From: Candidatus Omnitrophota bacterium
GTDB lineage: Bacteria; Omnitrophota; Gorgyraeia; Gygaellales; Profunditerraquicolaceae
Reading direction: 5' to 3'
DNA: 64,000 nt
Assembly (NCBI GenBank): GCA_028712255.1
Contig: JAQTQJ010000002.1
Coordinates: 22,846 to 86,845 of the forward strand
A program made the translations under genes and the position numbers. Position 1 is the first letter of the stretch, and each line of letters opens with the position of its first letter. Shown here one piece after another: positions 17,291-63,700 of the stretch. The notes below the pieces were generated by a model. The model ran no database searches, had not been told where the DNA came from, and was given only the letters and a program-made list of their open reading frames with translations.

Positions 17291-17298
17291 ATATTCTT

Positions 17299-18582: not shown

Positions 18583-18594
18583 GCAAATGATAGT

Positions 18595-19938
18595 ATGAAA
18601 ATCTATTTAGCATCAAAATCAAAAGCCAGAAAAAAATTGTTAGATAAGTTTGGCTTGAAATTCAAAGCCTTTCCTTCTAAAGTCAAAGAAGTAAATAAAC
18701 GCGGTAATTTATCTTATGCGCAATTAGTTAAGAATAATGCGCGCAATAAGGCCAAAGATGTAGCTTCGAAAGTAAAAGAGGGCATTATTATTGCCGCCGA
18801 TACTATTTGCGTACAGAATGGGTTGATATTTGGCAAACCTAAAAATATTCAAGATGCCCGTCGAATGCTTAAAAAACTATCCAGCGCCCCGCAGTGGCTT
18901 TATACTGGGATAGCAGTGATCAAAAAAGACAAAAGCACAGAAAAGTTAGTATTAGATTATGAAAAAACAAAAGTCCATATGGACAGATTAAACGATAAAG
19001 AAATCAGTAAATATTTTAAACAGGTATCTCCAATGGATAAAGCAGGGAGTTTTGATATACAGGGGAAGGGGGCGTTTTTTATTAAGAAGATAGATGGCTG
19101 TTTTTATAACGTCGTAGGTTTGCCTTTACGAAAACTTTATCATATCTTTAAAAGGTTTGGGGTACTCTCTGTAATCTGTTTTGTCTTATTGCTTTGTGGC
19201 TGTTCTACCGAGTATAATCTTGTCACTAAACAGGAGGAGCAATATTATTACAGTACAGATAAAGAAGTGGCGATGGGACAGGCGATTAACCGCCAGGTAG
19301 AAAAAGAATTAAAATTCTCTAATGACCCTTTGCAGAAAAAACGCCTGGAGGATATCGGTAAGAAGATCGTCGCAGTAAGCGATAGAAAAGAGATCGATTA
19401 TTATTTTCAGGTTTTGCAGGATGATACCGTGAATGCCGTTTCTTTGCCCGGAGGCTACATCTACGTAAATACCGGATTATTGGATAAAGTTTCTAGTGAT
19501 GATGAGTTGGCTTGCGTTTTGGCGCACGAAGTCGGCCATATCGTTGCCCGGCATTCTATTAAAAAACTTCAGGCAATGCAAAGCTTTTCTATATTAAGAT
19601 TGTTGGTAGCTGTAGCTCCTACTGGCGGCTCAGGAGAAATCGGTAATGCCGCCGATATTGCTTTTACCCAATTTCTCCTTGGATATAGCCGGGAGGATGA
19701 GTTGCTGGCGGATCAATTGGGGGCCCGTTATGCTAAGCGGGCCGGCTATGATCCGCACGCGATGATTACTTTTTTAAATAAACTGCAGGATATAAACCGT
19801 AGGATGCCACTTCAGGAACAATCATATTTTAAAACCCACCCCTATGTTCCTGACAGGATTAGAATTGTTAAGCAGGAAATTGGCGAGCCAATTAAATTTA
19901 GCGATTATATCAATATTGAACAGAAGCCGCATGAATAA
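18595..19938 (+). CDS. Single ORF joining an N-terminal Maf nucleotide pyrophosphatase domain to a signal-peptide/TM segment and an M48 zinc metallopeptidase (HEVGH)
   Basis: Residues 1 to about 188 are Maf-like (IYLASKS…GLPL). Then VLSVICFVLLLCGC (lipoprotein-like signal), then the M48 HExxH motif HEVGHIVARH. No stop or plausible internal start lies between the domains. Confidence 0.7.
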   Translation: MKIYLASKSKARKKLLDKFGLKFKAFPSKVKEVNKRGNLSYAQLVKNNARNKAKDVASKVKEGIIIAADTICVQNGLIFGKPKNIQDARRMLKKLSSAPQWLYTGIAVIKKDKSTEKLVLDYEKTKVHMDRLNDKEISKYFKQVSPMDKAGSFDIQGKGAFFIKKIDGCFYNVVGLPLRKLYHIFKRFGVLSVICFVLLLCGCSTEYNLVTKQEEQYYYSTDKEVAMGQAINRQVEKELKFSNDPLQKKRLEDIGKKIVAVSDRKEIDYYFQVLQDDTVNAVSLPGGYIYVNTGLLDKVSSDDELACVLAHEVGHIVARHSIKKLQAMQSFSILRLLVAVAPTGGSGEIGNAADIAFTQFLLGYSREDELLADQLGARYAKRAGYDPHAMITFLNKLQDINRRMPLQEQSYFKTHPYVPDRIRIVKQEIGEPIKFSDYINIEQKPHE

Positions 19939-21064
19939 GTTAATTTGTTCTTTAGCGATAATTTTATTAGTTTTTATTTATTTTTATGCAGGCCTACCTG
20001 TTGGGCGGGTAGGGAAAATTTTACCGCAAGAAAAATTGGATAAAGATTTAATAAAATTAAATAAAATAAATATGGATAATCCTTTCGGGGTTCTTGAATT
20101 TCTACATTGGAATCATTCTTGGAATAATTACAAATATCCCAGCAATCTTGACCTAGAAAAGGCCGTCTCTCTGATGCAAAGTGCCGGAGTTGGTTGGATA
20201 AGATTGGATTTCCTATGGGAAGATATCGAGCCGGCTGAGGGTAACTTTGATTTTGCAAAATATGATAATATTGTTAAATTAGTTAGGAGTAAAGGAATCT
20301 ATATTCTAGGTATATTGCATTACAGTACAGGTTGGGCTTCCTCATGCAGAGAATGGAATTGTCCGCCTAAAGATAACACTTTATTTATTAATTACACAAA
20401 CAAAGTTATCCAACGCTATAAGGAACAGATTAAATACTGGGAGATTTGGAATGAGCCGGATTCTGTTACCTATTGGAAACAACAGGATGGCCTTAAGTCT
20501 TACTGCGTTTTATTAAAAGAAGTATATCTTGCGGCTAAGAAAATTGATCCGGATTGTAAAATTTTAAATGGCGGCCTTGCTAATGGGCTCTCAAGTATCA
20601 ACCATCTTTATGATAACGGCGCAAAAGATTATTTTGACATATTAAACCTGCATTTTTTTCAAAACCCATTATTCGGGAACAATGCCATGAGAGCTATAGC
20701 CACTTTCCCTAAGCTTGCTTATAAGATAATGGTGCGTAACGGGGATGCAAATAAGAAAATATGGATAACTGAAATTGGTTGTCCGGGAGTAAGGACGGGA
20801 TTACAAACAAATAACTGGTGGCTGGGAGATAATCCCAGTGAATCTGAGCAGTCCAGGTGGCTTAAAGATGTGTATATTGAATTGTTAAAAAATCCGCGGG
20901 TAGAGAAGATTTTTTGGGCATTTTTCCGGGATACTAAAGATCACTGGAAAAATGGAGTGGATTATTTTGGTTTAGTGCGTTGGGATTATTCGTGTAAACC
21001 TTCTTTTAAGGCTTATCAAGAATGTTTTAAAGAATGGAAAAGAGATAAGAATTTAAAAAAATAA
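19931..21064 (+). CDS. Secreted glycoside hydrolase, clan GH-A TIM barrel (GH5-like)
   Basis: N-terminal signal anchor, catalytic acid motif WEIWNEPD, and putative nucleophile region WITEIG. Confidence 0.6.
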   Translation: MNKLICSLAIILLVFIYFYAGLPVGRVGKILPQEKLDKDLIKLNKINMDNPFGVLEFLHWNHSWNNYKYPSNLDLEKAVSLMQSAGVGWIRLDFLWEDIEPAEGNFDFAKYDNIVKLVRSKGIYILGILHYSTGWASSCREWNCPPKDNTLFINYTNKVIQRYKEQIKYWEIWNEPDSVTYWKQQDGLKSYCVLLKEVYLAAKKIDPDCKILNGGLANGLSSINHLYDNGAKDYFDILNLHFFQNPLFGNNAMRAIATFPKLAYKIMVRNGDANKKIWITEIGCPGVRTGLQTNNWWLGDNPSESEQSRWLKDVYIELLKNPRVEKIFWAFFRDTKDHWKNGVDYFGLVRWDYSCKPSFKAYQECFKEWKRDKNLKK

Positions 21065-23181: not shown

Positions 23182-23586
23182 GGGGGTGAAAGGGTTCGAC
23201 TTAAGATATGTCGGATAAAAGCAGCATGCCGCGGACGCATGGTTAGCCGCGTTAATAATCCGTGCACAATTCAAACGCAAACACGACAGTGTCACGTTTA
23301 GGAACATTTGTCCAGCCGTCTTTTGCGGCTAGACCGATGTTTCTTCCAGCCTACTGCCCTAATTAAGGCAGTAGCCTCTAACCGTCCAGCCTACGGGATG
23401 GATTAGGGCCTTGGTAGGATAGTCTCGGCGGTTAGCCTTCCAAACTGGGATGAAATCGAAAAGGCTGCGCTTTGCAAATCCTGCCTTATAGAAGTTGCAA
23501 AGCTAAGACAAATTATAAGGCTAAGCATGTAGCGGCTTCTATTCGATTACTTAGGGACGGCGGTTCAATTCCGCCCACCTCCACCA
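23182..23586 (+). ncRNA. ssrA: Transfer-messenger RNA (tmRNA)
   Basis: 5' end GGGGGUGAAAGGGUUCGAC and 3' end GGACGGCGGUUCAAUUCCGCCCACCUCCACCA form a tRNA-Ala-like acceptor/T-arm with encoded CCA. The gene lies immediately downstream of smpB. The tag ORF could not be resolved. Confidence 0.85.
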
Positions 23587-31334: not shown

Positions 31335-31399
31335 AAATGTTTCGGGTAAGACCTCGCCAATGTTTAGTGGTGGGTCGCCCCGACTTTGAAAAATTAAAT

Positions 31400-31680
31400 G
31401 CGCCTGTAGCTCAAATGGATAGAGCACCTGCCTTCCAAAGGAGCCTCTATGGGGAAATAAAACTCATAGAGTGCATGTGGCTGTATGCAAGGAAATCCTT
31501 ATTTTTTAAGGATCACTTGCAGGCAACCCCCGCTATAAGCGGGGAGAGTCCTCAGAGACTATACGCCACACACCTGTAAAGGTGAAGACATAGTCCAGAC
31601 CGCAACAAGTGTTTCTGGCCGGAGTAATCCGGTGCGGTAAGCTAAGCCGGTTGTTGGCCGTTCGATTCGGCCCAGGCGCA
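31400..31680 (+). tRNA. tRNA gene interrupted in the anticodon loop by a ~207-nt group I intron; inferred tRNA-Arg (anticodon UCU) after splicing
   Basis: 5' acceptor GCGCCUG (31400-31406) and 3' strand CAGGCGC-A (31673-31680) are perfectly complementary across 281 nt. D arm GCUC-AAAUGGAUA-GAGC and T arm GGCCG-UUCGAUU-CGGCC are canonical. Exon 1 ends at …CCUGC-CUU (31434) and exon 2 begins after a G at CUAAGCCGG (31642). The anticodon assignment depends on the exact splice sites. Confidence 0.6.
31435..31641 (+). other. Putative group I intron (no ORF)
   Basis: Contains a P7-like pairing agACTAtacg … acaTAGTCcagac and several stem-loops (cctctatgggg/ctcatagag; cccgc-tataa-gcggg). Terminal G sits before exon 2 and a U before the 5' splice site. 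Size is comparable to the smallest known tRNA group I introns. Confidence 0.5.
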
Positions 31681-31817
31681 TTTAAATAGTATAAAGAATC
31701 GAACGGAAGGGGGTGTGGGGGAAAAGTGATGTCCCCCACGCTTTCGGGGTGACAGCGAACGAAGTGAGCGCCATAGGGGCAGAGCCCCTATGGGGAGCGA
31801 TCCGCCATAGGCGGAGC

Positions 31818-33201: not shown

Positions 33202-33663
33202 ATGCCAAATCAAAAATGTAAGATTTGCGGTAAAGAATTCTATACAAAGCCTTTTCATGTGAAGAAAGGTTGGGGTAAATATTGTTCTATAAAATGTCGT
33301 TCTAAATCTCAATTTAATGGAAAATGGGTCAAATGCGTTAACTGCGGAAGGAAAATTTATAGGACCCCGCGTGATTATAGAAAATCAAAAAGCAAAAGAT
33401 TTTTTTGTTCAGTAGGTTGCCATTGTTCATGGGAAAATAAAAACGTGCGTTGTGGCGTTAATGCGCCAAATTGGATTGCTGGAGAAAATGCTTATAGGGA
33501 TATAATGAGAAGGTCCGGTATAGTAAAAAAATGTAATAAATGCGGAATAGATGATAAAAGAATTTTGGCAGTCCATCATAAAGACGGGAATAGAAAAAAT
33601 AATGTAATAGAAAATTTAGAATGGCTCTGTCGCAATTGTCATTTTATTGTTCATTGGTATTAG
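33202..33663 (+). CDS. HNH endonuclease
   Basis: N-terminal CxxC zinc knuckles (CKICGK, CVNCGR) and HNH core AVHHKDGNRKNNVIENLEWLCRNCH. Lies between the tRNA-His 5' fragment and the intact tRNA-His. Confidence 0.75.
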   Translation: MPNQKCKICGKEFYTKPFHVKKGWGKYCSIKCRSKSQFNGKWVKCVNCGRKIYRTPRDYRKSKSKRFFCSVGCHCSWENKNVRCGVNAPNWIAGENAYRDIMRRSGIVKKCNKCGIDDKRILAVHHKDGNRKNNVIENLEWLCRNCHFIVHWY

Positions 33664-33668
33664 TTTTT

Positions 33669-33746
33669 GGTGGGTATAGCTCAGCTGGATAGAGCACCTG
33701 ACTGTGGCTCAGGTTGTCGCGAGTTCGAATCTCGTTACCCACCCCA
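33669..33746 (+). tRNA. tRNA-His (anticodon GUG) with encoded G-1 and 3' CCA
   Basis: G-1 pairs with discriminator C73. Acceptor GUGGGUA/UACCCAC, anticodon stem-loop CCUGA-CUGUGGC-UCAGG, T arm GCGAG-UUCGAAU-CUCGU, then CCA. Confidence 0.9.
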
Positions 33747-34370
33747 TTTTTTATTTTGAGCATATAAAGCCTCCCAACTGGCCGTAGAATCAACGAGTTG
33801 CGTCGGTTCTAATCTGTTGTGGAGGCTTTGTACGTCAGGTGCCACACATTCGAACATGGCAAGGCACTTTTCCTGCTCAAATTGCAGTTTCTTGCCGTGT
33901 AAGACGAGTTTTGTGCCCAGACACGAGAGAACATACCGCTTGTCCTCTAAAGTGCCCGTGTCGAACCGTTTCTTGGCCGTTTGCGCGAACATAAACGCCT
34001 TATCCGCCCGATCCAGCCACGTTTCAGCCCTTGCCTGAGTATCGCCGATTAATTCCTCGTATTTCTGCTTTTCCTTGAGGATATCCTCTTTTTTCTTGGC
34101 GTATTCTTCCGCGCCGATCTCTTCGTTCAATCGCATATTAAAAAGCGCGTCTAATTTTTTAACGCAGGCGTCCAGATTATGCCGGTGCGCCTTGGTGATC
34201 TCATCGCGGTCGACTATTTCTTTTGATTGATCAGCTTTAAGTTGTTTTATCGCCCAATCCCGGAATTGCGGCGGTATGGTTATTTTGCCTAAAATGTCAC
34301 GGATTTGATTCTCAAGATCCTCTAAGCGTATAGGCGGCTCGGAGCAATCCCGTTTGATACTGCGCGCCCT
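33735..34370 (-). pseudogene. C-terminal fragment of a serine-recombinase-like protein (coiled-coil/zinc-ribbon region); N-terminal catalytic domain absent
   Basis: Open frame runs with no start codon from a TAA near 34370 to the first Met at 34136: …IRLEDLENQIRDILGKI…DEITKAHRHNLDACVKKLDALFNMRLNEE…. The 3' end overlaps the tRNA-His 3' end by ~12 nt, an integrase-next-to-tRNA arrangement. The family assignment is tentative. Confidence 0.45.
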
Positions 34371-34485: not shown

Positions 34486-34513
34486 TTGACATATTTAGTG
34501 AATATGCTAAACT
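34486..34513 (+). promoter_or_regulatory. Sigma-70-type promoter for the DUF134 operon, with a downstream operator-like palindrome
   Basis: TTGACA, 16-nt spacer, TAAACT. Followed by GTTATGcacatatgttCATAAC before the aggaggc RBS. Confidence 0.35.
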
Positions 34514-34550
34514 TGTTATGCACATATGTTCATAACGATAGGAGGCTATT

Positions 34551-34856
34551 TTGAGGCCAAAGAAAACTAGATGGGTAAAGTGTATTCCAGGTGAAAGGTG
34601 TTTTAAACCACTTTGTAAACCTTTAAATAAGCTGGAAGGGGTCTTTTTGACACTTGATGAGTTTGAGGCTGTGCGTCTAGCCTGTCTTGAAGGATTAAAA
34701 CAGGTAGAAGCGGCAAAGTTAATGAAGATTTCCCGGTCGACTTTCTCTAGAATTATTACTTTAGCGCACCGTAAGATAGCTGATGGATTAGTTAATATAA
34801 AAGCAATTAGGATTGAAGGCGGTTGCTGTAAGATTAAGGGGAGGGGCAAGCAATGA
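34551..34856 (+). CDS. DUF134 (UPF0251) predicted DNA-binding protein
   Basis: …CFKP…LTLDEFEA.RL..LEGL.Q.EAA..M.ISR.TF.RI…A.RK.ADALVNGKAIRIEGG is the conserved DUF134 pattern, a sigma region-4-like HTH. Confidence 0.75.
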   Translation: MRPKKTRWVKCIPGERCFKPLCKPLNKLEGVFLTLDEFEAVRLACLEGLKQVEAAKLMKISRSTFSRIITLAHRKIADGLVNIKAIRIEGGCCKIKGRGKQ

Positions 34857-36025
34857 AAGATTGGAAAAAGTTTCTATATATATTAGCAGCATTTCTGGCT
34901 TGTTTTTATCTGCCGGTAGAAAATATGCGTTTTAATAACGCGGTCTTTGAAGCATTAGCGCTTGTTAAGTGGTATGCGCGGGAGCACGTGCTCTTGTGTT
35001 TGGTTCCGGCTTTCTTTATTGCAGGAGCGATATCGGTGTTTGTCAGCCAAGCGTCAGTGATGAAGTATTTCGGCGCTAAGGCAAATAAATTTCTTTCCTA
35101 TAGCGTTGCCTCGGTATCGGGAACGATTCTAGCGGTATGCTCATGTACTGTGTTACCTTTATTCTCCGGTATTTATAAAAGAGGAGCTGGACTTGGTCCT
35201 GCGGTTGTGTTTCTTTATTCAGGGCCTGCCATAAATGTTTTGGCGATTATCCTAACAGCGCGTATTCTTGGCTGGCAGCTAGGGTTAGCACGAGCCATAG
35301 GCGCGGTTATTTTTAGTATTGTTATCGGATTGCTCATGCATTTAATTTTTCTTAAGGAGGAGCGCGCTCGCCATGCGAGCGGAGATTTACAATTAGGTGA
35401 GGTTAAAGTGACTCGGCCACTATGGAAAGATATTATTTATTTCTTCTCTATGGTCGCCATACTTGTTTTCGCCAACTGGGGGAGGCCTTTAGAAGGAGAT
35501 ACAGGAATTTGGAGTTTAATCTATGCTTCCAAATGGTGGATTACAGGATTTTTCTTAATAGTTTTAGGATTTAGTATTTTTAGGTGGTTTAAAAAGGATG
35601 AATTAAAGGAATGGACCGGAGCGACATGGGGTTTTGCGCTTCAGATTCTGCCGCTTCTTTTAGGAGGGGTGCTTGTATCTGGATTTCTTTTGGGAAGGGT
35701 TGGACATGAGGGGGTTATTCCTTCGCGGTTTGTTGAAATGCTGGTGGGAGGGAATTCCTTACGGGCGAATTTCTTTTCATCGATTGTTGCGGCATTTATG
35801 TATTTTGCCACATTAACCGAAGTACCTATTTTGCAGGGTCTTATTGGCTCCGGGATGGGCAAGGGGCCTGCTTTAGCGCTTCTTTTGGCGGGACCCGCTT
35901 TGAGTTTGCCGAGTATGCTGGTCATTCGGGGTATTATAGGTACTAAGAAAACGGTGGTATATGTGGCGTTGGTTGTGGTGATGGCGACCATAAGTGGCAT
36001 GATCTTTGGGGCGATAGTTAAGTAG
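34853..36025 (+). CDS. DUF318/ArsP-family permease (two-CxC membrane permease)
   Basis: Polytopic membrane protein with the intramembrane VCSCTVLPLF motif (compare the ArsP TPFCSC motif). Confidence 0.7.
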   Translation: MKDWKKFLYILAAFLACFYLPVENMRFNNAVFEALALVKWYAREHVLLCLVPAFFIAGAISVFVSQASVMKYFGAKANKFLSYSVASVSGTILAVCSCTVLPLFSGIYKRGAGLGPAVVFLYSGPAINVLAIILTARILGWQLGLARAIGAVIFSIVIGLLMHLIFLKEERARHASGDLQLGEVKVTRPLWKDIIYFFSMVAILVFANWGRPLEGDTGIWSLIYASKWWITGFFLIVLGFSIFRWFKKDELKEWTGATWGFALQILPLLLGGVLVSGFLLGRVGHEGVIPSRFVEMLVGGNSLRANFFSSIVAAFMYFATLTEVPILQGLIGSGMGKGPALALLLAGPALSLPSMLVIRGIIGTKKTVVYVALVVVMATISGMIFGAIVK

Positions 36026-36034
36026 ATAGGGAAA

Positions 36035-36919
36035 ATGCATAGAGAAAATAACAAAGAAAGTCGGCTAATTATATCTGCAGGGCTTAATTTGGTAACAACT
36101 GCAGCGCAAATTATCGGTGGTGTCTTTTCAGGAAGTCTTTCGCTGATCTCTGACGCGCTGCATAATTTAAGCGATACTGTGGCTTTGGTGATTAGTTTCT
36201 TTGCGGTGCGCCTCGCTAAGCGTAAGAATACCGAAGCCCAGACTTTCGGCTATAAGCGTGCTGAGATTCTGGCTGCGCTCTTTAATGCCTGCGCGCTGGT
36301 AGTAGTCTCAATATTTCTATTTAAGGAGGCCATTGCCAGATTTTCTCATCCGCACCCGATCAACGGCGTGCTTATGTTGTCTGTGGCTTCAGTTGGATTA
36401 ATTGCCAACATTGTTTCCGTATTTCTTCTTAAAGCGCATGCACATGAGGATTTAAATATACGGGCAGCATATGTACATCTTTTCTCTGATTTTCTTTCTT
36501 CTATTGCGGTAATTATTGGCGCCTTGGCGATTCTAATATCAAAAGCCTATTGGATTGACCCGGCTTTGACTATTCTTATTGGTATCTATGTATTGAGGGA
36601 AGGATATAAGATTATCGAAGAAAGCACCCGCATTCTCATGCAACATGTCCCAAAAAGAATAAACTTAAGGGAAATTCAGGCGCGCATAGAAGGAATTGAA
36701 GGAGTAAAAGACATTCACCACGCTCACCTGTGGGCGGTAACCGAACGGGATATTCATTTTGAAGCGCATATCAATGTATCGCGGGATATGCCGGTCAGCG
36801 AGACGTGTCTTTTAGTAAGGCAAGTAGAAGAAGCGCTTAAAGAAAGTTTCGCTATTACTCATGTGACTTTGCAGGTTGAGTTTAATTCGTGTAAAGGAGT
36901 TAGCTTGATTAAGGTCTGA
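36035..36919 (+). CDS. Cation diffusion facilitator (CDF) family metal efflux transporter
   Basis: Six TM helices with the HxxxD motif in TM2/TM5 (SDALHNLSD; HLFSDF) and a C-terminal cytoplasmic domain (HHAHLWAV). Confidence 0.85.
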   Translation: MHRENNKESRLIISAGLNLVTTAAQIIGGVFSGSLSLISDALHNLSDTVALVISFFAVRLAKRKNTEAQTFGYKRAEILAALFNACALVVVSIFLFKEAIARFSHPHPINGVLMLSVASVGLIANIVSVFLLKAHAHEDLNIRAAYVHLFSDFLSSIAVIIGALAILISKAYWIDPALTILIGIYVLREGYKIIEESTRILMQHVPKRINLREIQARIEGIEGVKDIHHAHLWAVTERDIHFEAHINVSRDMPVSETCLLVRQVEEALKESFAITHVTLQVEFNSCKGVSLIKV

Positions 36920-37113
36920 TATGGAGAAAAGAAAACTTATTATTCTTAATGAAGGAGATTTATTTAAAGTCGAGCAGATTGTTATTGACCGGGATAAAGA
37001 CGGAGCGCTGGATTTTGTTAAAGAAGTGATCAAGAAAAAAATCGACAGAGAAAATGCCTCAAAAATGAAACGGGAAGGTATATAGAAGGTATATAAGGAG
37101 GGTGGGTAATAAA

Positions 37114-37347
37114 ATGAAAATAGAAATTTTAGGGGTAGGTTGCCCAAAGTGTAAGCAATTAACCGCAAATGCAGAAAGCGCACTTAAGGAGCTTGGTATT
37201 TGCGTGGATATTGCCAAGATTACCGATATCGGTAAGATCACCGAATATGGGGTGATGATGACGCCGGCATTAGCAATTGACGGCACGGTGGTTTCGGCGG
37301 GTAAGGTATTAAGTAAGGATGAGATTAAAAAGATTCTCTCAAAATAG
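37114..37347 (+). CDS. Small thioredoxin-fold protein (TM0996/MTH895 redox-active disulfide protein 2 family)
   Basis: MKIEILGVGCPKC has the N-terminal CxxC, in a ~78-aa Trx-like protein. ATG 37114 lies behind a taaggaggg RBS. Confidence 0.65.
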   Translation: MKIEILGVGCPKCKQLTANAESALKELGICVDIAKITDIGKITEYGVMMTPALAIDGTVVSAGKVLSKDEIKKILSK

Positions 37348-37359
37348 GAAAGGATAAAA

Positions 37360-37770
37360 ATGTCAGCTAAAAATTGTATGTGTCAGGAAACAGGATTGTT
37401 GGTTTTTCCTTGTTCAGGCAGCTCGGATGTAGGAGAATTGTCTGATCGGGTTGGCAGAGCGATTGCCAAGTGCGGCCAGGCAAAGATGTTTTGTCTTGCC
37501 GGTATTGGGGCACATATTTCCGGGATGATTGAATCTGCCAAGGCAGCCAAGAAAATTATCTCTATTGATGGCTGCCCGGTTTCATGCGCCAAGAAGACGC
37601 TTGAGCATGCCGGCTTTAAAATCGAAGCATATAATCTCAAAGATTTGGGGTTTGAGAAAGGTAAGACCAAAGTCGATGAAAATTCTATTAAAAGTGCGAC
37701 ATCAAAAATAACAGGAGGAAAAATTGAAGAAACTATTACTCGTTCTTCTGGCGGTTGTTGTACTAAGTAG
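37360..37770 (+). CDS. DGC-domain putative zinc-binding protein
   Basis: IDGCPVSCA motif and additional conserved Cys (FPCSGSS; CCTK C-terminus). Confidence 0.65.
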   Translation: MSAKNCMCQETGLLVFPCSGSSDVGELSDRVGRAIAKCGQAKMFCLAGIGAHISGMIESAKAAKKIISIDGCPVSCAKKTLEHAGFKIEAYNLKDLGFEKGKTKVDENSIKSATSKITGGKIEETITRSSGGCCTK

Positions 37771-38161
37771 CGTTGGCATAATTTTTTCACCTCTAGCTCA
37801 AGCAGTAGAGAATGTGAATGGTGCGCATGTGGTTGTTTATTATTTCCATGGACAGATGCGGTGTCCGACCTGCCACAAGTTGGAGCAGTATTCAAAGGAA
37901 GTAATAGAAACTAACTTTAAGGATGCGCTTGCGTCCGGAAAACTGGAGTTTAAGGTTGTTAATGTGGAGGATAAAGGCAATGAGCATTATGGGAAGGACT
38001 ATCAGCTTTACACTAAATCTCTTATTCTGTCCTTAGTCAAAGATGGGAAGGAAGTAAAGTGGACTAATATGGATAAGATTTGGGAGTATGTTAGTAATAA
38101 GCCGAGATTTATTGATTATGTAAAGAGCGGGGTTACCGATTTATTAAGGGAAGCTAAATGA
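37724..38161 (+). CDS. Secreted thioredoxin-like protein
   Basis: Signal peptide (LLLVLLAVVVLSSVG), then a CPTC redox motif in a Trx-like context (VVYYFHGQMRCPTCHK). Confidence 0.5.
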   Translation: MKKLLLVLLAVVVLSSVGIIFSPLAQAVENVNGAHVVVYYFHGQMRCPTCHKLEQYSKEVIETNFKDALASGKLEFKVVNVEDKGNEHYGKDYQLYTKSLILSLVKDGKEVKWTNMDKIWEYVSNKPRFIDYVKSGVTDLLREAK

Positions 38162-38847
38162 CAGAGATGTTTATAAGCCTTGCGTCAGCTTTGTGGTTGG
38201 GAATTTTAACTTCCATTAGTCCGTGCCCTTTAGCCAGTAACGTGGCTGCCATTTCGTTTCTCTCTAAGAAAATAGCGCATCCGGCGCTGGTGTTTATTTC
38301 AGGTTTGGCGTATACGCTTGGGCGGATGGTTTCTTATGCTGTCCTGGGATGGATTATTATTAATTCACTATTAAGTGTTCCTCAAGTTGCCCAGTTCTTG
38401 CAGAAGTATATGGGTAAAGCTTTAGGGCCGCTGTTAATCTTTACCGGCCTCGTGCTGCTTGAGATAATACCACTTCGTCTTCCCGGGCTGTTGCTATCGC
38501 AAAAGCATCATAATAAGCTTGTAGAATCCGGCGCTCCGGGTGCCTTTTTGCTTGGTTTTATTTTTGCTCTGGCATTTTGCCCTATTTCTGCTGCGTTATA
38601 CTTCGGGAGTTTTATTCCTTTAGCGATTAACAGTGAAAGCGGTATCGCACTGCCATTCATTTACGGAATTGGAACAGGTTTGCCGGTTTTTGCATTTGCT
38701 GTTGCCATTGCCTTAGGCGTGACATCATTGAGTCATTGGTTTAATAAAATCACAAGGCTCGAATACTATACCCGAAAGATTACCGGGATCATATTTATCC
38801 TTGTTGGCCTGTACTATGCAGGAATATATATTCTGAGGTTATTTTAA
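38158..38847 (+). CDS. ccdA: CcdA/DsbD-family transmembrane thiol:disulfide electron transporter
   Basis: Six TM helices with the SPCP motif in TM1 (ISPCPLAS) and a second Cys in TM4 (FCPIS). Confidence 0.75.
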   Translation: MTEMFISLASALWLGILTSISPCPLASNVAAISFLSKKIAHPALVFISGLAYTLGRMVSYAVLGWIIINSLLSVPQVAQFLQKYMGKALGPLLIFTGLVLLEIIPLRLPGLLLSQKHHNKLVESGAPGAFLLGFIFALAFCPISAALYFGSFIPLAINSESGIALPFIYGIGTGLPVFAFAVAIALGVTSLSHWFNKITRLEYYTRKITGIIFILVGLYYAGIYILRLF

Positions 38848-38850
38848 GGT

Positions 38851-39663
38851 GTGCGATTGGAAATAAACAAGAGCAAACAGTATGAAATTATTGTTTTTCC
38901 GAATCAAGATGAGGGTTTAAAAGCCCAGGGAATCTTGATTTCTAAAGGGTTAGATTTTAAGCATATTTCTACTTTGGCAGTAGTTGTTACTGAAGAACAC
39001 AAAGAGACGGCGTGTTTGACTATTATTGATGGGGATGTGCTGATTAGCGGGTGCTATCCGTTTTTATATCGTGATTATGAAGAAGATTATTTTAAAAAAG
39101 CGCAAGAATATAAGGCGCTGGAATCAGACGATGAATTTCTAAAGAGTATCACGTTGTGCTATGTGGCTCCCTGCATGGCCGATGAAAAGAAAATCCGGCT
39201 CATCGGATACCTTGACCGGGATATTACGGAAATCTTGCCGTATATTAATGCTGTTATTAAGGGCGCTTCATATAACAAGAACGCTTCCACATTGACCTAC
39301 GCCAAAGAACGTCAAATGATTAATCTTTATAATATTAAGATTACCGTTGCCAAGGCAGGCGATATTATTGATGCCTGGGTCGTTTTAGATGAAGTTAAGA
39401 AGTTGATTAACGACACGTATCGTAGACGCGATAGCATCAAGCCTAATTACGAAGAAAAAGTTAAAGTAACGGCGCTTCAAATCTATGGTTGGCTTCCTAA
39501 AACTAATTGTAAGGCATGCAGGGAAGCGACATGCCTTGCTTTTGCGTGCAGGCTTTTATTGGGAGAACAGAAACTTTCAAACTGTACACCACTGTCAACG
39601 GAACCAAAATTTTCCGAGAATAATAAAATTATGCAGGAGATGGCAGAAGCATTAGGTGTTTAA
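38851..39663 (+). CDS. Hypothetical protein with a C-terminal Cys cluster ([14 protein letters not shown])
   Basis: GTG start. No family recognised. The Cx2Cx4Cx4C tail and position between ccdA and acr3 suggest a metal(loid)-binding role. Confidence 0.4.
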
Positions 39664-40864
39664 AGATAGTGAAAGAAAGGATAAAAACATGGAGAGAGCT
39701 GTTCATGAAGAAAGGCATCTAGGAGTATTTGAGAAATATCTCACGCTTTGGGTTTTTGTATGTATTGGATTAGGTGTATTGACCGGTAAAGTTGCTCCGC
39801 AGGCGGCCAAGTTGCTTGATGGTATGGCGATTTATGTAAATGGAGCCCCGGTAGTTTCAATTCCGATCGCGATCTGTTTATTTTTCATGATGTATCCCAT
39901 AATGGTCAAGATTGATTTTGCCGAAGTCATCAAAGCCGGGAAATCCCCAAAACCGGTATGGCTTACACTTTTCGTGAATTGGGCAATCAAGCCTTTTACG
40001 ATGTATGCCATAGCTTATATTTTTCTGGGAATTTTGTTTAAAGGGTTTATTGGTGTAGAGGCGATGGATTTTGTTAAGCTTCCTCCCGGGGCTGACTGGT
40101 TGTTGGGTTCCATCCATGGTTCAGGAACAGTGGTCATGCATGAAGGTTTAAAGGTTCTTCAGGTGCCGCTGTGGCGTAGTTATTTCGCGGGTTGTATTCT
40201 GCTGGGGATTGCTCCCTGTACCGCCATGGTTTTAGTTTGGGGTTTTTTGGCTAAAGGCAATGATGGTCATACCTTGGTGATGGTGGCGATTAATTCACTA
40301 ACTATGCTTTTGCTTTACGGAGTTTTAGGCGGGTTTCTTTTGGGTGTTGGAAGGATGCCGGTTCCCTGGCAGGCGTTATTATTATCGATCGTTATTTATG
40401 TGGCATTGCCTCTTATCACAGGATACTTTTCGCGGAAGTTGATTGTAGCGCTAAAAGGTATAGAATGGTTTAATAAGAAATTTTTACATGTATTGAGCCC
40501 GGTTTCAATTATTGCGCTCTTGTTTACGCTTGTGCTTTTGTTTTCCTTTAAAGGGGAGATTATCCTTGGGCAGCCGTTAACTATCCTTTGGATAGCGGTT
40601 CCGCTTTTTATCCAGACTTGTTTAATATTTATAGTCACCTATTGGCTGGCTAAAAAGTTAAAATTAAAATATGAGGATGCGGCTCCTTCAGCGATGGTGG
40701 GGGCAAGTAATCATTTTGAGGTGGCGATTGCTACCGCAACCATGCTATTTGGTATTTCTTCAGGGGTAGCGCTGGCGACCGTGGTCGGGGTATTGATTGA
40801 AGTGCCGGTAATGCTGATGTTAGTCAAGTTTTGCTTGCGGACACGCAGTTGGTTTACGCGTTAG
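39656..40864 (+). CDS. acr3: ACR3-family arsenite efflux transporter
   Basis: …[12 protein letters not shown]… and 10-TM BART-superfamily topology typical of Acr3/ArsB(ACR3). Confidence 0.8.
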
Positions 40865-40898
40865 CGATATTCACAACCTTGCTTTAACAGGAGAAAAC

Positions 40899-41321
40899 AT
40901 GATGGACAAAAAACGGGTTTTATTTATTTGTGTGCATAATTCGGCAAGGTCTCAAATGGCCGAGTCCTTTTTAAAAGAGATGGCGGGGTATAAGTTTGAG
41001 GTTGAAAGTGCTGGCCTTGAGCCGGGCAAGCTAAATCCCGTAGTTGTCGAGGTCATGAGAGAGGTAGGTATAGACATTTCGCAGAATAAGACCAAGAGCG
41101 TTTTTGATTTCTATAAACAGGGCAAACAATATGATTACGTCATTACTGTCTGCGACGAATCGCAGTCAGGCGCATGTCCTGTGTTTCCTGGTAAGGGCGA
41201 GCGGCTTCATTGGGGATTTGATGATCCTTCTGGGTTTCAGGGAACATGGGAGGAGAAGCTAGAGAAAATAAGGCAAGTGCGAGATAAGATAAAACAAAAA
41301 ATTATCGAATGGCTTAAATGA
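40899..41321 (+). CDS. arsC: Arsenate reductase (LMW-PTPase family, thioredoxin-coupled)
   Basis: VLFICVHNSARSQMAE P-loop (CX5R) with downstream Cys pair (CDES…C). Confidence 0.85.
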   Translation: MMDKKRVLFICVHNSARSQMAESFLKEMAGYKFEVESAGLEPGKLNPVVVEVMREVGIDISQNKTKSVFDFYKQGKQYDYVITVCDESQSGACPVFPGKGERLHWGFDDPSGFQGTWEEKLEKIRQVRDKIKQKIIEWLK

Positions 41322-41328
41322 ATGATCC

Positions 41329-41781
41329 ATGTGGGAGTCATACAGAGACATCATCCGGAGCTATCCTAGAATTCCCCTCTTTGAAGAAAGGCGTTTGATT
41401 CTCAAAGCTCAAAAAGGTTCAAAGAAGAGTAAAGATGAGCTTGTCCTTAGCCACGTTAGTTTTTTAATCTTTAGAATCCATAAAATCGCATTTCCTTCGT
41501 TGGTTCGGTCCTTTGGAGAGGATCTACTAGCAGAAGCTATCCTTATCGTTTATAAGAAGATCGAAAGCTATGACCTTAATTACTGTGATAAGCATGGCAA
41601 TCCTAATCCAGTTAAATTTACTTCTTACATTTGGAAGCGAATCGATGGGTTCATAATCGATGCTTTAAAGAAAGAGCTCAGCGAGTCAAATTATTACGAT
41701 AGATACAGCGGATACGTCCTTAAAAATGGGGATTTATCGTTTATGTCCGGGTCAATAGAGTCGGACAATTTTATCTCTTGA
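41329..41781 (+). CDS. Sigma-70 region-2-only protein (sigma-factor-like; region 4 absent), paralog 1
   Basis: EERRLILKAQKGSKKSKDELVLSHVSFLIFRIHKIA…GEDLLAEAILIVYKKIESYD…FTSYIWKRIDGFI follows the sigma-70 region 1.2/2.1-2.4 pattern. The ~150-aa length leaves no room for regions 3 and 4. Confidence 0.55.
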   Translation: MWESYRDIIRSYPRIPLFEERRLILKAQKGSKKSKDELVLSHVSFLIFRIHKIAFPSLVRSFGEDLLAEAILIVYKKIESYDLNYCDKHGNPNPVKFTSYIWKRIDGFIIDALKKELSESNYYDRYSGYVLKNGDLSFMSGSIESDNFIS

Positions 41782-41994
41782 TTTATCAGAGAGTTACGAA
41801 ATTCCGAGCCAAAAAAGACCGGACAAAACGGACATATTGGCGAGGAAATGCCTTCTCTAAACCTAGAATATTCTTGATATATTGAGGTATCGCGCCTATA
41901 ATTAGTCTAATAAATTAAGAGAGGTTTCCCCTCAGGTAATACGAGAGTGACGCCATTTCTAAATGGAAGTAGCATATTAGGAGAAAAGGGAAGA

Positions 41995-42576
41995 ATGATG
42001 GAGAATAAAAGGTTAGTTGGTAAAAATATCTTAGTTACCTTAATAAGCAAAATTTTAATTGTGATTTTGATTTTCAGTATTGTTCTAATTGGAGAATTGT
42101 GGATTTGTAACAAACCAATCTTTGCCGAGAATCAGGGAGTAACAATAACTACCGACAAAACAGAATATAGTCAGGGAGATACAGTGACAATAATAGGGAG
42201 AAATGGCCTAGATAAATCAATATGGGGTTTTAATTCTTGCGGTGGTAGGCCGTTTTGGGGTCTTCAGAAATTAACCGATGGAACATGGAAAAATCTGGAT
42301 TTATGTCTCCCATTAAAGAATAAAAAAGACTGGGAATGTATCATGGTGCTTTGCGAGAGGTCAGAACCCCGAGAGCTAAAATCAAAATTAGAGATTAAGG
42401 ATGAGTGGCACATTACATTTTTTTGCGACTTTATTAACGAAAAAGGCATTTTATTGGATAAACCTAAAGAAAGAATAATTAAAAAAGGCATTTATAGATT
42501 GGTATTATCTTACGTATTTGATGAAGATAGTATTGATAGGGAAATTATCTATTCTAACGAATTTAAGATTAAATAA
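41995..42576 (+). CDS. Hypothetical membrane-anchored/secreted protein
   Basis: N-terminal hydrophobic anchor, then a Cys-containing beta-rich domain. Flanked by short gagaggtttccc(c/t)tc direct repeats at 41918 and 42721. Confidence 0.4.
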   Translation: MMENKRLVGKNILVTLISKILIVILIFSIVLIGELWICNKPIFAENQGVTITTDKTEYSQGDTVTIIGRNGLDKSIWGFNSCGGRPFWGLQKLTDGTWKNLDLCLPLKNKKDWECIMVLCERSEPRELKSKLEIKDEWHITFFCDFINEKGILLDKPKERIIKKGIYRLVLSYVFDEDSIDREIIYSNEFKIK

Positions 42577-42838
42577 AAATTATCCTTGATGGTTATCGGG
42601 AAAATAGGGATAGCGGCCATTTCATATCTCATCACCCCAGTAATCAGCGAGGAATTACCTTTCTAAAGTCGCAGTATTGGGCATATATCAAGGTAATTTC
42701 TATATATAAGTGTTATTTGGAAGCAGAGAGGTTTCCCTTCGGCTCACAGGAGAGGGACCCCCCCATATCTTCGTTTACCGTTTCGGCGAGGGTTTCTCTG
42801 CCAGAATTATTTGTTATTTAGGTTGTCAATAAAAATAG

Positions 42839-42887: not shown

Positions 42888-43460
42888 ATGCTGCAAAGCT
42901 TAATAGCTTCAAAAACTCGTCAAACTCTTCTTAAGGCATTCTTTGAGGCGCCTGAGATAGAGTATTATACCCGCCAATTAGCTAGTAAATACCATATGTC
43001 TGTTGGGACGCTTCATAGGGAACTGCAAAAACTGAGTACCTCTGGGATACTTAAATCACGTAAAATCGGTAACATAAAGCTGTTTTCCTTAAATAAACAA
43101 AATTCTATTTATGAAGAAATTAAAAACATTATTTCTAAAACGCAAGGGGTAATAAGGTTTATAAAAGATGCCTTATTTGGCATAAAAAGCATTAAAGTTG
43201 CTTTTATATACGGTTCTCTTGCTAAAGGAGATGAGCGGCAAGACAGCGATGTAGATATATTTTTGATAGGGGATAGTATAGATGATAATGAATTGGTGAT
43301 AAAAATTAGCAGTCTGGAAAAGAAATTATTTAAAGAAGTTAATTATACATGTTATACAGAAAATGAATACAAAAAGGAAAAAAAGAAAAAGAATTCGTTT
43401 GTTTTAGAAGTAATAAAGGGCAAAAAGATATTTATCAAAGGAGATGAAGGTGACCTCTGA
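42888..43460 (+). CDS. Winged-HTH plus minimal nucleotidyltransferase (MNT-type antitoxin-like) protein
   Basis: N-terminal HTH (…LASKYHMSVGTLHRELQKL…), then the nucleotidyltransferase motif GSLAKGDERQDSDVDIF. Confidence 0.7.
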   Translation: MLQSLIASKTRQTLLKAFFEAPEIEYYTRQLASKYHMSVGTLHRELQKLSTSGILKSRKIGNIKLFSLNKQNSIYEEIKNIISKTQGVIRFIKDALFGIKSIKVAFIYGSLAKGDERQDSDVDIFLIGDSIDDNELVIKISSLEKKLFKEVNYTCYTENEYKKEKKKKNSFVLEVIKGKKIFIKGDEGDL

Positions 43461-43541: not shown

Positions 43542-43697
43542 ATGAGGAAAAATCGTAATAATTTTATCTATGAACCTTGGAAAATCAATATTTCCATGAC
43601 TGACGCAAAAAGTGCTTTAAAATTAGCTCAGGAATTTGTCAAGATTATTAAAGACGAAATTCAGCGAGAACATCCGCAGATTAATTTTAAATTTTAA
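43542..43697 (+). pseudogene. Possible decayed HEPN-domain partner of the upstream nucleotidyltransferase
   Basis: Short ORF (MRKNRNNFIYEP…ALKLAQEFVKIIKDEI) resembling the C-terminal half of HEPN domains. The upstream part of that frame is closed by a stop at 43473. Confidence 0.3.
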
Positions 43698-43910
43698 GTT
43701 TTGTTTTTTGCCACTTAAAAATTGCGGCGGTTTTTTGAAAAGATAACGCTAGGCGAGGCGCGGGGCATTATAGATGTTTCATTAAGCACCTTGGCCTATT
43801 GGATATAGCCAAGTGTCCTGCATTCTGCAGGAAGATCAGCTTTACTCCCCGGGGGGTACAAATAGTTCTCTTTGGGTTTTATGGAAAATTTTCTTAAAAG
43901 GAGAGAGGCC

Positions 43911-45134
43911 ATGTTCAAACAATTCATTGCTGGTAGTTGCTACTCTTATATTTTAAGTTCAAATGAAGAAGCATTAGTTATCGATCCGCATATCAGCCTG
44001 TTGGATGAATACAGCGAATATTTAAAGAAAAATAGGCTTATGCTGAAGCTTATCATAGACACGCACACACATGCCGACCATTTTTCTTTAGCATCCGTAT
44101 TAAAGAAGAAATTTGGTGCGCAGGTATTGATGCATGAAAAAGCAATTTCTAGCGTTGCGGATAGGCGCTTAAAGGATAATGAGCAAGTCGCCATAGGCTC
44201 CAGTAGCTTTAAAGTCATATATACTCCTGGTCATACAGATGATGCCGTTAGTTTATACGGCGAAAATAAATTATTTTCCGCAGATGCCCTCTTAATCGGC
44301 AGTGTCGGCCGTACGGATTTTCAGAATGGTTCTCCTGAGTCTATGTTTGATACATTAAAAAAGCTTAAAGCTTTTCCGGGAGAGACGGTAATTTTTCCCG
44401 GCCATGACTATCATGAAAAACGTTCGTCTACATTAGCTAAAGAGAAAGGAGAAAATCCTTTTTTAAAAGAAGAGGATAAAGAGGCATTTGTTAAAAACAT
44501 GCGTTCAAAGGTTATTCCCAAGCCTTTTAATATAGACAATATTATCCGCGTAAACCAGAAAGGCCAAGTCGCGGCATTAGAGATGATTGAGCCTAGGGAT
44601 GCCCTGGTAATTATAGAGAAAGATCCTCAGGCCAAATTACTGGATGTACGTTCTGCCTTGGAATTCAGTGAAGTGCATATTAAAGATTCAATTAATATCC
44701 CCATAGATATGCTTTCTGCTAAAATCAATGACCTAAGTCAATCTATGCAAAGCTATATTGTCCTTTGCCGCACCGGTAATCGTTCCCCTATGGCTGCGGA
44801 TATGTTAATACAGTCTGGTATTCATGGCGTTAAGGTAATGCAAGGCGGTATGACGCGTTGGCAGAAGGAAAGGTTACCTGTTATCAAAGGTGAGGGCGGC
44901 ATATCACTAGAACGCCAGGTCCGGCTTATTGCCGGAAGTTTAGTGTTATTGGGGATACTTTTATCATGGATTGTGCATTGGGTGTTTATTTTTATCCCGG
45001 TATTTGTCAGCTGCGGCCTTATTTTTTCCGGCTTGACTGATAACTGCATAATGGGTATGCTGTTAATGAAATTGCCTTATAACAAAAAATTATATAAAAT
45101 AAAACTTGGCGGTGGAACATGTGCCATGGGATAA
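43911..45134 (+). CDS. Three-domain MBL-fold hydrolase (persulfide-dioxygenase-like) + rhodanese + DUF2892 membrane tail
   Basis: HTHADH metal motif, rhodanese active-site loop CRTGNRS, and a C-terminal two-helix DUF2892/YgaP-like segment. ATG 43911 lies behind an aaaaggagagagg RBS. Confidence 0.75.
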   Translation: MFKQFIAGSCYSYILSSNEEALVIDPHISLLDEYSEYLKKNRLMLKLIIDTHTHADHFSLASVLKKKFGAQVLMHEKAISSVADRRLKDNEQVAIGSSSFKVIYTPGHTDDAVSLYGENKLFSADALLIGSVGRTDFQNGSPESMFDTLKKLKAFPGETVIFPGHDYHEKRSSTLAKEKGENPFLKEEDKEAFVKNMRSKVIPKPFNIDNIIRVNQKGQVAALEMIEPRDALVIIEKDPQAKLLDVRSALEFSEVHIKDSINIPIDMLSAKINDLSQSMQSYIVLCRTGNRSPMAADMLIQSGIHGVKVMQGGMTRWQKERLPVIKGEGGISLERQVRLIAGSLVLLGILLSWIVHWVFIFIPVFVSCGLIFSGLTDNCIMGMLLMKLPYNKKLYKIKLGGGTCAMG

Positions 45135-63561: not shown

Positions 63562-63700
63562 AGCTAAGATTTTATAGTCTCATAAAAATGGGTTCAGGAG
63601 TATCTTCCTGAAGGTTTAGATGGTCGGGCCGCCATCTGCGATTATCGCAGGTGTCGGTTTTTTATTTTTTAGCGTTTAAGTTAAAAGAAAGGAGTCTTTT

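Follow-up and report, generated by a model that had tools for sequence, protein, structure and literature searches.

The stretch of DNA considered here (the window) comprises 64,000 nucleotides (nt) of contig JAQTQJ010000002.1 from a Candidatus Omnitrophota bacterium and carries, between positions 34551 and 41321, eleven close-packed genes that resemble an arsenic resistance (ars) operon and are headed by a gene for a DUF134 family protein. All eleven lie on the plus strand, and the open reading frame (ORF) list and translations gave the order DUF134, ArsP_1 permease, CDF exporter, an ORF of 54 amino acids (aa), ArsE, DGC protein, ArsF, ArsG, iron-sulfur (Fe-S) protein, ACR3, and ArsC (Table 1). 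Adjacent genes overlapped by as much as 47 nt or lay as far as 34 nt apart, in keeping with a single transcription unit. An original prediction made from the sequence without database searches had listed ten genes here. All ten were found on the plus strand where it had placed them, and profile searches reproduced every family and kept each gene in the one proposed for it, but the eleventh gene, the 54-aa ORF, had been missed. It had also been claimed that the partners of the arsenic genes were not the usual arsR, arsD, and arsA. Pfam and NCBIfam scans returned no match to ArsD or ArsA among the operon proteins, tblastn with three ArsR sequences found no ArsR in the 64-kb window, and no ArsR-type helix-turn-helix (HTH) was detected in the eleven operon proteins or the eight flanking ORFs scanned. 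The absence of the three usual genes was therefore upheld; the partners were less unusual than supposed, however, as NCBI already names ArsE, ArsF, and ArsG.

Table 1. Features of the DUF134-headed operon and its upstream flank, with their supporting matches
Feature	Position	Strand	Match or detail
tRNA-His	33670-33746		abuts integrase remnant
Integrase remnant, C-terminal ∼210 codons, no start codon, no catalytic domain	33735..34370	-	PHROG 95, E 1e-4
Operon promoter	34486..34513	+	-35 TTGACA (34486-34491); 16-nt spacer; TG-extended -10 TAAACT (34508-34513)
Operator	34516..34535	.	inverted repeat TTATGCAC-ATAT-GTTCATAA
DUF134/UPF0251 protein, 101 aa, TTG start	34551..34856	+	PF02001, E 3.6e-19
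ArsP_1 (DUF318) permease, 390 aa, "long" type	34853..36025	+	PF03773, 259 bits, E 6e-77
CDF divalent-cation exporter, ZitB/CzcD type	36035..36919	+	TIGR01297, 282 bits (cutoff 82); Pfam Cation_efflux, ZT_dimer
54-aa ORF, no cysteines	36921..37085	+	no family match in profile scans
ArsE, cytoplasmic mini-thioredoxin, 81 aa, CPKC	37102..37347	+	Thioredoxin_3 PF13192, E 6e-27
DGC-domain protein, 136 aa	37360..37770	+	PF08859, E 5e-28
ArsF, exported or membrane anchored, 145 aa, CPTC	37724..38161	+	NF040494 ArsF family, 118 bits (cutoff 60)
ArsG, DsbD_2/CcdA-like membrane protein, 229 aa	38158..38847	+	NF040495 equivalog, 280 bits (cutoff 200); PF13386, E 3e-16
Fe-S protein, ∼268-270 aa	38851..39663	+	C-terminal PF04060 FeS domain, E 1.5e-10
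ACR3 arsenite efflux permease	39656..40864	+	TIGR00832 equivalog, 375 bits (cutoff 283)
ArsC, thioredoxin coupled, low-molecular-weight protein tyrosine phosphatase (LMW-PTP) type	40899..41321	+	LMWPc PF01451, E 2.6e-20

A strong promoter with an operator-like palindrome had been predicted ahead of the DUF134 gene. Both proved to be real and were conserved over approximately 80 genomes, and the palindrome was identified as TTATGCACATATGTTCATAA at 34516 to 34535, symmetric at 18 of its 20 positions. Relatives were sought with one genome per species; of 283 relatives, 80 were examined, as loci with a DUF134 protein 75 to 95% identical to that of the window. When the regions upstream of these ∼80 loci were aligned, the promoter (TTGACA-(16/17)-TGnTAAAnT) followed by the palindrome were the sole features in common, the upstream DNA being otherwise unrelated. 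The operator family had the consensus TTATGAAC-N4-GTTCATAA, with both half-sites nearly invariant over all loci and the central 4 nt free to vary. One exact copy of this consensus per locus was present in 68 of 86 loci, always just 5′ of the DUF134 gene and nowhere else in ∼1.1 Mb; within the window, the site in Table 1 was the only one with zero mismatches. Even DUF134 proteins with just 53 to 61% identity had a related operator, TTATGCACATATGTGCAxAA, upstream of their genes.

The spacing of these elements was also constrained. From the first base of the -35 hexamer to the start of the operator, 30 nt were counted in 58 of 82 sites, which places the operator 1 to 2 nt past the -10 hexamer, and 12 to 16 nt separated its end from the start codon. 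In the window, 2 nt separate the -10 hexamer from the operator, which thus lies across the expected start of transcription. Such a position would suit a repressor, and a promoter this close to consensus would need no activator. Whereas the palindrome could form an 8-bp stem with a 4-nt loop, and its two perfect variants (C..G and A..T) resemble covariation, it is very improbable that it acts as a hairpin in the RNA 5′ leader, affecting stability or translation, with DUF134 merely cotranscribed and not the regulator. The left arm begins 2 nt past the -10 hexamer and so lies mostly upstream of the likely transcription start, the arms are invariant in sequence and do not covary over ∼80 species, a C..T combination breaks the pair in four loci including the window, and the neighboring gene encodes an HTH protein. 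On its geometry, the lack of covariation, and the lack of any matching Rfam family at the palindrome, the hairpin was rejected in favor of a DNA operator.

The DUF134/UPF0251 family is widespread among anaerobic bacteria and archaea. A search of the full-text literature found no functional study of it, most of the matches being to DUF134x numbers. The window protein matched PF02001 with 69.6 bits (cutoff, 27) over profile positions 6 to 96 of 98, and it combines a sigma-70 region-4-like HTH core with cysteines at positions 11, 17, and 22 and a C-terminal EGGCC motif (Cys 92 and 93). Its Pfam matches were DUF134, HTH_29/23, and sigma-70 region 4, with no match to HTH_5 or HTH_20. AlphaFold2 was confident for residues 30 to 80 only, which formed three helices. 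The best fold matches of this core in the PDB were to region 4 of extracytoplasmic function (ECF) sigma factors and the DNA-binding domain of DeoR, and the core fold is thus that of a DNA-binding HTH. A PDB sequence search identified no relative, and the DUF134 profile weakly matched the DeoR HTH only. The protein therefore lies outside the ArsR/SmtB family, without an ArsR-type winged helix-turn-helix domain, even if it works like an ArsR.

Database searches identified 2077 homologues, and the best 120 of the 2077 were all from Omnitrophota, with 82 to 96% identity. In each of the 81 related loci DUF134 came first, and an ArsR-like ORF was found near only two of them. Among 85 aligned operon-heading copies, C11, C17, C22, C92, and C93 were each present in 79 to 82. 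Generic DUF134 paralogues of the same genomes had Tyr17 and Gly22 and lacked the C-terminal CC, and C17, C22, C92, and C93 are specific to the operon-heading clade. For the family as a whole, a representative library contained 3133 cluster representatives (E value, ≤1e-3); a CC pair following the conserved IEGG occurred in only ∼11 of 150 family representatives (50% identity clusters), all of them the closest relatives. Within this CC clade, C11 together with C92/C93 formed the most persistent cysteine trio. Three members in the 53 to 61% identity range headed ACR3 (P0242), an ArsP_1-thioredoxin-ArsF-like-DsbD_2 set (P0241), and an aquaglyceroporin of the MIP family (P0249). The claim that DUF134 rather than ArsR serves as regulator is supported by its first place in 81 loci, the conserved promoter and operator, the clade-specific cysteines, and the scarcity of ArsR nearby, and it is the best-supported part of the earlier interpretation.

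Generic paralogues without the CC tail were observed in three related loci (L046, 11216-11563; L056, 19608-19904; and the 17035-20303 region of L001). That of L046 directly follows arsC, and in L001 a FUR-DUF5320-NifX-like-Fer4/CbiA ATPase cluster lies nearby (17035-20303). The DUF134 protein (EGGCCKIK) and the DGC protein (SGGCCTK) have a GGCC tail motif in common, which both families keep throughout these operons.

The genes downstream of DUF134 were surveyed by BLAST over 46 nonredundant loci that had at least 5.5 kb of downstream sequence. An ArsP-type permease was present in 43 of these loci, ACR3 in 40, ArsE and ArsG in 37 each, ArsF in 36, the methyltransferase ArsM in 23, and ArsC in 10, while the Fe-S protein, DGC protein, and CDF exporter occurred in 6, 3, and 2, respectively. 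In dozens of relatives the cluster thus stayed linked to arsenic genes, and the original prediction withstood its own refuting condition, namely reassignment of the permease and thioredoxin-like genes and no conservation with ars genes in any relative. The methyltransferase of the relatives was identified as an arsenite methyltransferase by NF008823 (352 bits; cutoff, 263). The window operon appears to be a variant without ArsM and with an added CDF exporter, DGC protein, Fe-S protein, and ArsC. Minimal forms, DUF134-ACR3-ArsC and DUF134-permease-ACR3-ArsC, were also found, and these share their layout with arsR-acr3-arsC operons, the regulator having been exchanged. At three loci for which precomputed Pfam annotation was available, DUF134 was followed by ArsP_1, Thioredoxin_3, an ArsF-like gene, and DsbD_2, with methyltransferase, Fe-S, and ACR3 genes in some, and the flanks held unrelated housekeeping genes.

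Variation within the operons was observed at several levels. Across L001 to L086, the same slots held two deeply different ACR3 clades (64 to 94% versus 31 to 47% identity to the window protein) and two permease types (390 versus 316 aa, 21 to 29% identical), with regulator and operator constant. In L004 (12287-13601), L026, and L050, three extra genes lay between arsM/arsE and arsF, encoding a universal stress protein, a ferredoxin of 71 aa that is HgcB-like, and a 119-aa ORF similar to the HdrA N terminus. Two to four DUF134-headed operon starts were found in single metagenome-assembled genomes (MAGs), namely JAZDPX01 (L015, L022, L030, and L068) and also JAPLLQ, JBFZAU, JBMONJ, and JAPLMA; these multicopy MAGs could reflect either paralogy, mobility, or a mixture introduced by binning.

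The arrangement of promoter, operator, and regulator suggests how the operon could be controlled. Transcription would run as a single unit from the near-consensus sigma-70 promoter, and a DUF134 dimer would most likely bind the 20-bp palindrome and block initiation. Binding of As(III) or Sb(III) by the clade-specific cysteines would then probably cause DUF134 to leave the DNA. As(III) prefers coordination by three sulfurs, and three-cysteine sites are found in the ArsR proteins R773, AfArsR, and CgArsR. Since C11 and C92/C93 are the most persistent trio, they would suit three-sulfur coordination as in these proteins, and would form the likeliest sensor site, with C17 and C22 as further candidates. 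DUF134 would thus be a nonhomologous functional replacement of ArsR; to our knowledge, all characterized bacterial arsenite-sensing repressors belong to the ArsR/SmtB family.

The signal itself could be broader. Cysteines are the sensor candidates, a Zn/Cd-type CDF exporter is present in the window operon and in five others, some relatives add universal stress protein, ferredoxin, and HdrA-like redox genes, and one distant clade member heads only ArsP_1-Trx-ArsF-like-DsbD_2, without ACR3, ArsC, or ArsM. DUF134 might on these grounds be a repressor whose signal is thiol or soft-metal stress at large, with Cd, Zn, Sb, oxidants, and electrophiles as candidates, and not arsenite specifically. This seems unlikely, given that ACR3, ArsM, or ArsC was encoded in 40 of the 46 operons, that the genes headed by distant clade members include those for ACR3 and an aquaglyceroporin, each a carrier of As(III), and that ArsR proteins which bind As(III) typically have a three-cysteine site.

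Within the cargo, ACR3 would export arsenite and ArsC would reduce arsenate with thioredoxin as the reductant. ACR3 carries the APCTAMV (C188) and NHFE motifs, with C188 invariant in 21 of 21 orthologues; its first 11 residues are not conserved among the orthologues, and the true start is probably the ATG at 39689. In ArsC, the C11-X5-R P-loop, C85, and C93 were identified, and all three cysteines were invariant in 10 of 10 orthologues. The ArsP_1 permease contains a CSC motif (C96 and C98) as well as C17 and C49, and these four cysteines were invariant in 50 of 50 orthologues. Two CxC motifs had been proposed for this protein, a reading that was not sustained, there being just one, C96-S-C98, in addition to the invariant C17 and C49. 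Against the NCBIfam equivalogs SO_0444 and SaoE, the permease scored far below the cutoffs.

The ArsP_1 permease would export a further thiol-reactive arsenical, probably methylarsenite, as relatives place ArsM beside the long permease type. The long type occurred with ArsM in 31 of 46 loci, compared with 2 of 16 for the short type (Fisher's P = 2.7e-4, uncorrected for phylogeny). Chen and colleagues are said to have described ArsP of Campylobacter jejuni as a methylarsenite efflux permease in 2015. That protein belongs to the same Pfam family, PF03773, and the window permease is like it in having a conserved transmembrane Cys-x-Cys, in its place in an ars operon, and in adjoining ArsM in the relatives of the window. 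It differs in being of the 390-aa long subtype, and the likeness is drawn at the level of the family. The 316-aa short type resembles the permeases of Bacteroidota.

The remaining conserved genes encode ArsE, ArsF, and ArsG. ArsE scored 102 bits (cutoff, 62) against TIGR00412, the MTH895/ArsE family, and its C14 and C17 were invariant in 61 of 61 orthologues. ArsF carries an N-terminal signal sequence, MKKLLLVLLAVVVLSSVGIIFSPLAQA, read from its translation, and has C47 and C50 invariant in 54 of 54 orthologues. Two transmembrane cysteines were identified in ArsG, C23 (SPCP) and C141 (FCP), both invariant in 53 of 53 orthologues. ArsF and ArsG appear to be inherited together, with both present in 36 loci, one alone in 1, and neither in 9. 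With regard to the level of these assignments, TIGR00832 and NF040495 are equivalog models, and the ArsE and ArsF models are at the subfamily level.

This anatomy fits a relay, already suggested in the original prediction, from a thioredoxin through a CcdA/DsbD-type protein to a periplasmic CxxC protein, and ArsE, ArsG, and ArsF may form a unit that relays thiol-reducing power across the membrane. As in the CcdA-ResA, DsbD-CcmG, and ScsB-ScsC relays, the window has a cytoplasmic CxxC donor, a two-cysteine protein of the DsbD superfamily, and an exported CxxC acceptor, and the genes of the trio are adjacent and coinherited. Unlike in those relays, the trio lies within an arsenic operon, the thioredoxin fold of ArsF is a putative one, and elsewhere ArsG is reported to be a permease rather than a conduit for electrons. 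The direction of such a relay and its substrate are inferred from the cysteine positions and predicted locations of the three proteins. ArsC and ArsM both require a thiol reductant, and ArsE could also serve ArsC and, in the relatives, ArsM.

A different function has been attached to these names. Chen, Zhang, and Rosen are said to have described, in 2019, nitro-reduction of trivalent roxarsone and nitarsone coupled with efflux of the product. Applied to the window, ArsE and ArsF would reduce the nitro group of Rox(III)/Nit(III) and ArsG would efflux the aromatic amino-arsenical, as in Shewanella putrefaciens 200, with no thiol relay. The NCBIfam names ArsE, ArsF, and ArsG derive from that same work, all three window proteins score above the cutoffs of the models whose names refer to these functions, and the trio lies within an ars operon in every lineage examined. 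PMC9144182 likewise cites Chen, Zhang & Rosen 2019 for organoarsenical resistance and efflux in this role. The window nonetheless departs from the Shewanella system. The order E-F-G is the same, but a DGC gene stands between arsE and arsF, and the host's lineage, uncultured and of anaerobe type, is not known to encounter synthetic aromatic arsenicals. The nitro-aromatic ones are manufactured as additives to feed, whereas the trio was kept in ∼37 of 46 Omnitrophota operons from groundwater, lakes, and sediments. The Pfam scan detected no flavin or nitroreductase domain in the trio, and its anatomy is that of a relay, with one CxxC protein in the cytoplasm, another exported, and a DsbD_2 protein that retains two transmembrane cysteines. 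Nitro-reduction is therefore considered an unlikely function of the trio in these uncultured environmental bacteria, and the thiol relay is preferred.

Similar cargo was found behind a different regulator. Searches of plasmids (tblastn) with ArsG identified two Bacteroidota clusters, one on pFA1 of Fulvitalea axinellae and one on a plasmid of Prevotella nigrescens F0103. Both run from an ArsR or winged-helix protein through thioredoxin (ArsE), ArsF, and ArsG to a permease, and that of Prevotella adds ArsC and ACR3. Identity to the window proteins was 40 to 46% for ArsE, 31 to 34% for ArsF, 39 to 43% for ArsG, 43% for ArsC, and 45% for ACR3, and the permease was of the short type, 41 to 52% identical to the short Omnitrophota type. 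These clusters differ from the window in being headed by an ArsR/SmtB or winged-helix protein in place of DUF134 and in lacking the DGC, Fe-S, and CDF genes. Because they carry homologous proteins behind ArsR, the cargo module is a known, recurrent kind of ars operon.

More generally, R773 arsRDABC, pI258 arsRBC, and arsR-acr3-arsC operons resemble the window in having a small autoregulated first-gene repressor (a putative role in the window), an As(III)-type cysteine cluster, and a promoter dyad operator, and ArsR/SmtB-controlled ars operons likewise have an arsenite pump and an arsenate reductase (a predicted one in the window) downstream. They differ from the window in that its regulator is a PF02001 protein with a sigma-70 region-4-like HTH instead of the ArsR/SmtB winged helix, and in that ArsR, ArsD, and ArsA are missing from it. 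The new element would be the DUF134-clade regulator with its sharply defined operator, apparently standing in ArsR's place throughout an uncultured phylum.

The CDF, DGC, and Fe-S genes seem to be occasional accessories and not core and, with the 54-aa ORF, to be lineage specific. The CDF protein has HxxxD motifs in transmembrane segments 2 and 5 (HNLSD and HLFSD), which are of the Zn/Cd type; against the ZitB equivalog, it reached 232 bits, below the cutoff of 408. It was seen in just 6 related loci overall. Orthologues of the 54-aa ORF, 63 to 78% identical, were found in the same position in 13 loci, always directly after the permease or CDF gene, and this conservation in 13 operons indicates a real small gene. 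The DGC protein was found in 8 related loci and has nine cysteines, including a C-terminal GGCC, all nine of which were kept in 6 aligned sequences. A PDB sequence search with it identified no relative, and a part for it as an arsenite chaperone or buffer would be speculation.

The Fe-S protein consists of an N-terminal domain resembling a Se/S carrier, a middle part, and a C-terminal [4Fe-4S] domain of the corrinoid iron-sulfur protein (CFeSP) type. Its profile matched the N-terminal cluster domain of the CFeSP large subunits 2h9a, 4c1n, and 4djd at an E value of 1e-8, and a homologue (P0238) passed PF11823 at residues 11 to 68. The AlphaFold2 model was of low quality (pLDDT, 55) and showed a beta-alpha-beta-beta-alpha-beta unit from residue 10 to residue 72. 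The protein was 100% identical to one from an NCBI Candidatus Omnitrophica MAG (P0121). Many members of this family are labeled by JGI as "ArsR family metal-binding transcriptional regulator," and no HTH or ArsR domain was detectable in the scans made here.

Upstream of the operon, a recombinase remnant had been described. A match to the C-terminal part of an integrase was found there, at positions 413 to 560 of the 651 in PHROG 95, but the gene was identifiable only weakly. A tRNA-His gene, this remnant, and the operon follow one another, HNH endonuclease and nucleotidyltransferase ORFs lie nearby, and island status for the operon is hinted at. The operon might then have been carried by an integrative element, now degraded, at tRNA-His and be spreading horizontally among Omnitrophota as a cassette in which regulator and operator come with exchangeable cargo, an origin that would be compatible with the regulatory model above. 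The differing flanks at every locus, the DUF134 identity of 75 to 95% over species-level genomes, the 2 to 4 copies in some MAGs, and the two ACR3 clades and two permease types in the same slots would all agree with this. On the other hand, an att repeat search of the window did not detect the tRNA-His 3′ end a second time, there was no clear shift in GC content (0.41 to 0.43 versus ∼0.40), the integrase match was weak, and multiple copies per MAG may be binning artifacts. Overall, an integrative element at this tRNA is possible but on the doubtful side. Mobility of the operon in a looser sense is suggested by the differing flanks, the high cross-species identity, and the presence of 2 to 4 copies in some MAGs.

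Other features were observed in the surrounding sequence. The HNH endonuclease ORF (33202-33663; PF13392) is directly upstream of tRNA-His, between an intron-bearing tRNA region and the integrase remnant. That region holds a tRNA-Trp(CCA) at 31399 to 31681 with a 193-nt group I intron in its anticodon loop (RF00028; 31424-31617; 68.5 bits), found only with ARAGORN set to long introns. Downstream, a 150-aa ORF (41329-41781) begins 7 nt after arsC. This sigma-like ORF was considered as an operon member and rejected, as no orthologue was present in 80 related loci and its Sigma70_r2 match was subthreshold. A 37-nt direct repeat with 78% identity (41918-41954 and 42725-42761) flanks a 209-aa ORF at 41947 to 42576; a winged-helix and nucleotidyltransferase ORF lies at 42888 to 43460, followed by a small ORF at 43542 to 43697. 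A metallo-beta-lactamase-rhodanese-YgaP fusion at 43872 to 45134 represents sulfur or persulfide chemistry near the arsenic operon. Further away, a tmRNA gene (156 bits) was identified at 23182 to 23586 and an nhaA-I riboswitch-like element at 63590 to 63637 (44.8 bits; gathering score, 37).

Taken directly from the data, the gene content and order, protein families, invariant cysteines, geometry of promoter and operator, and co-occurrence across relatives are what any account of this locus has to accommodate. It is probable that the eleven genes constitute one ars operon, transcribed as a unit and under repression by a dimer of DUF134 that As(III) probably releases, with cargo of a known type that would include a thiol relay. 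Several points weigh against this. DNA binding, repression, and the response to metalloids are all inferred. The N-terminal cysteine positions differ among distant clade members, and the cysteine-bearing N- and C-terminal tails of DUF134 have pLDDT values below 50. Cysteine sensors can also answer to other soft metals as well as to oxidants, and the operon includes a CDF exporter of the Zn/Cd type. The co-occurrence counts take no account of phylogeny. Among the cargo proteins, ArsC reached 130 bits against TIGR02691, under the NCBIfam equivalog cutoff of 174; ArsF matched Pfam Thioredoxin_2 only at an E value of 0.009, below the cutoff, and found no relative in a PDB sequence search. The role reportedly published for ArsEFG, a nitroreductase plus an efflux permease, is of a different biochemistry from a relay.

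A wider reading joins two proposals and is put forward more tentatively, as one that could well be right but is not the favored outcome. It holds that the DUF134 clade is an unrecognized class of arsenite-responsive repressor that replaces ArsR throughout Omnitrophota and binds TTATGAAC-N4-GTTCATAA, sensing As(III) through cysteines gained at the N terminus and in the C-terminal GGCC tail, and, jointly, that ArsE-ArsG-ArsF is a transmembrane thiol relay servicing the periplasm.

Should this be so, it would provide a first function for DUF134, in a form that is testable with one 101-aa protein, one 20-bp operator, and a few cysteines, and would supply a new part for arsenic biosensors. A nonhomologous regulator with a cysteine site that evolved on its own would be a further case of convergent metalloid sensing. 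The data also reopen the question of the role of ArsEFG in nature; if the relay is correct, ArsE-ArsG-ArsF would protect or service the periplasm under arsenic stress and would not be an enzyme system for synthetic aromatic arsenicals. For the Omnitrophota, an uncultured phylum, the comparative data indicate that in most sampled members the genes for export and methylation of arsenic form a single regulated module.

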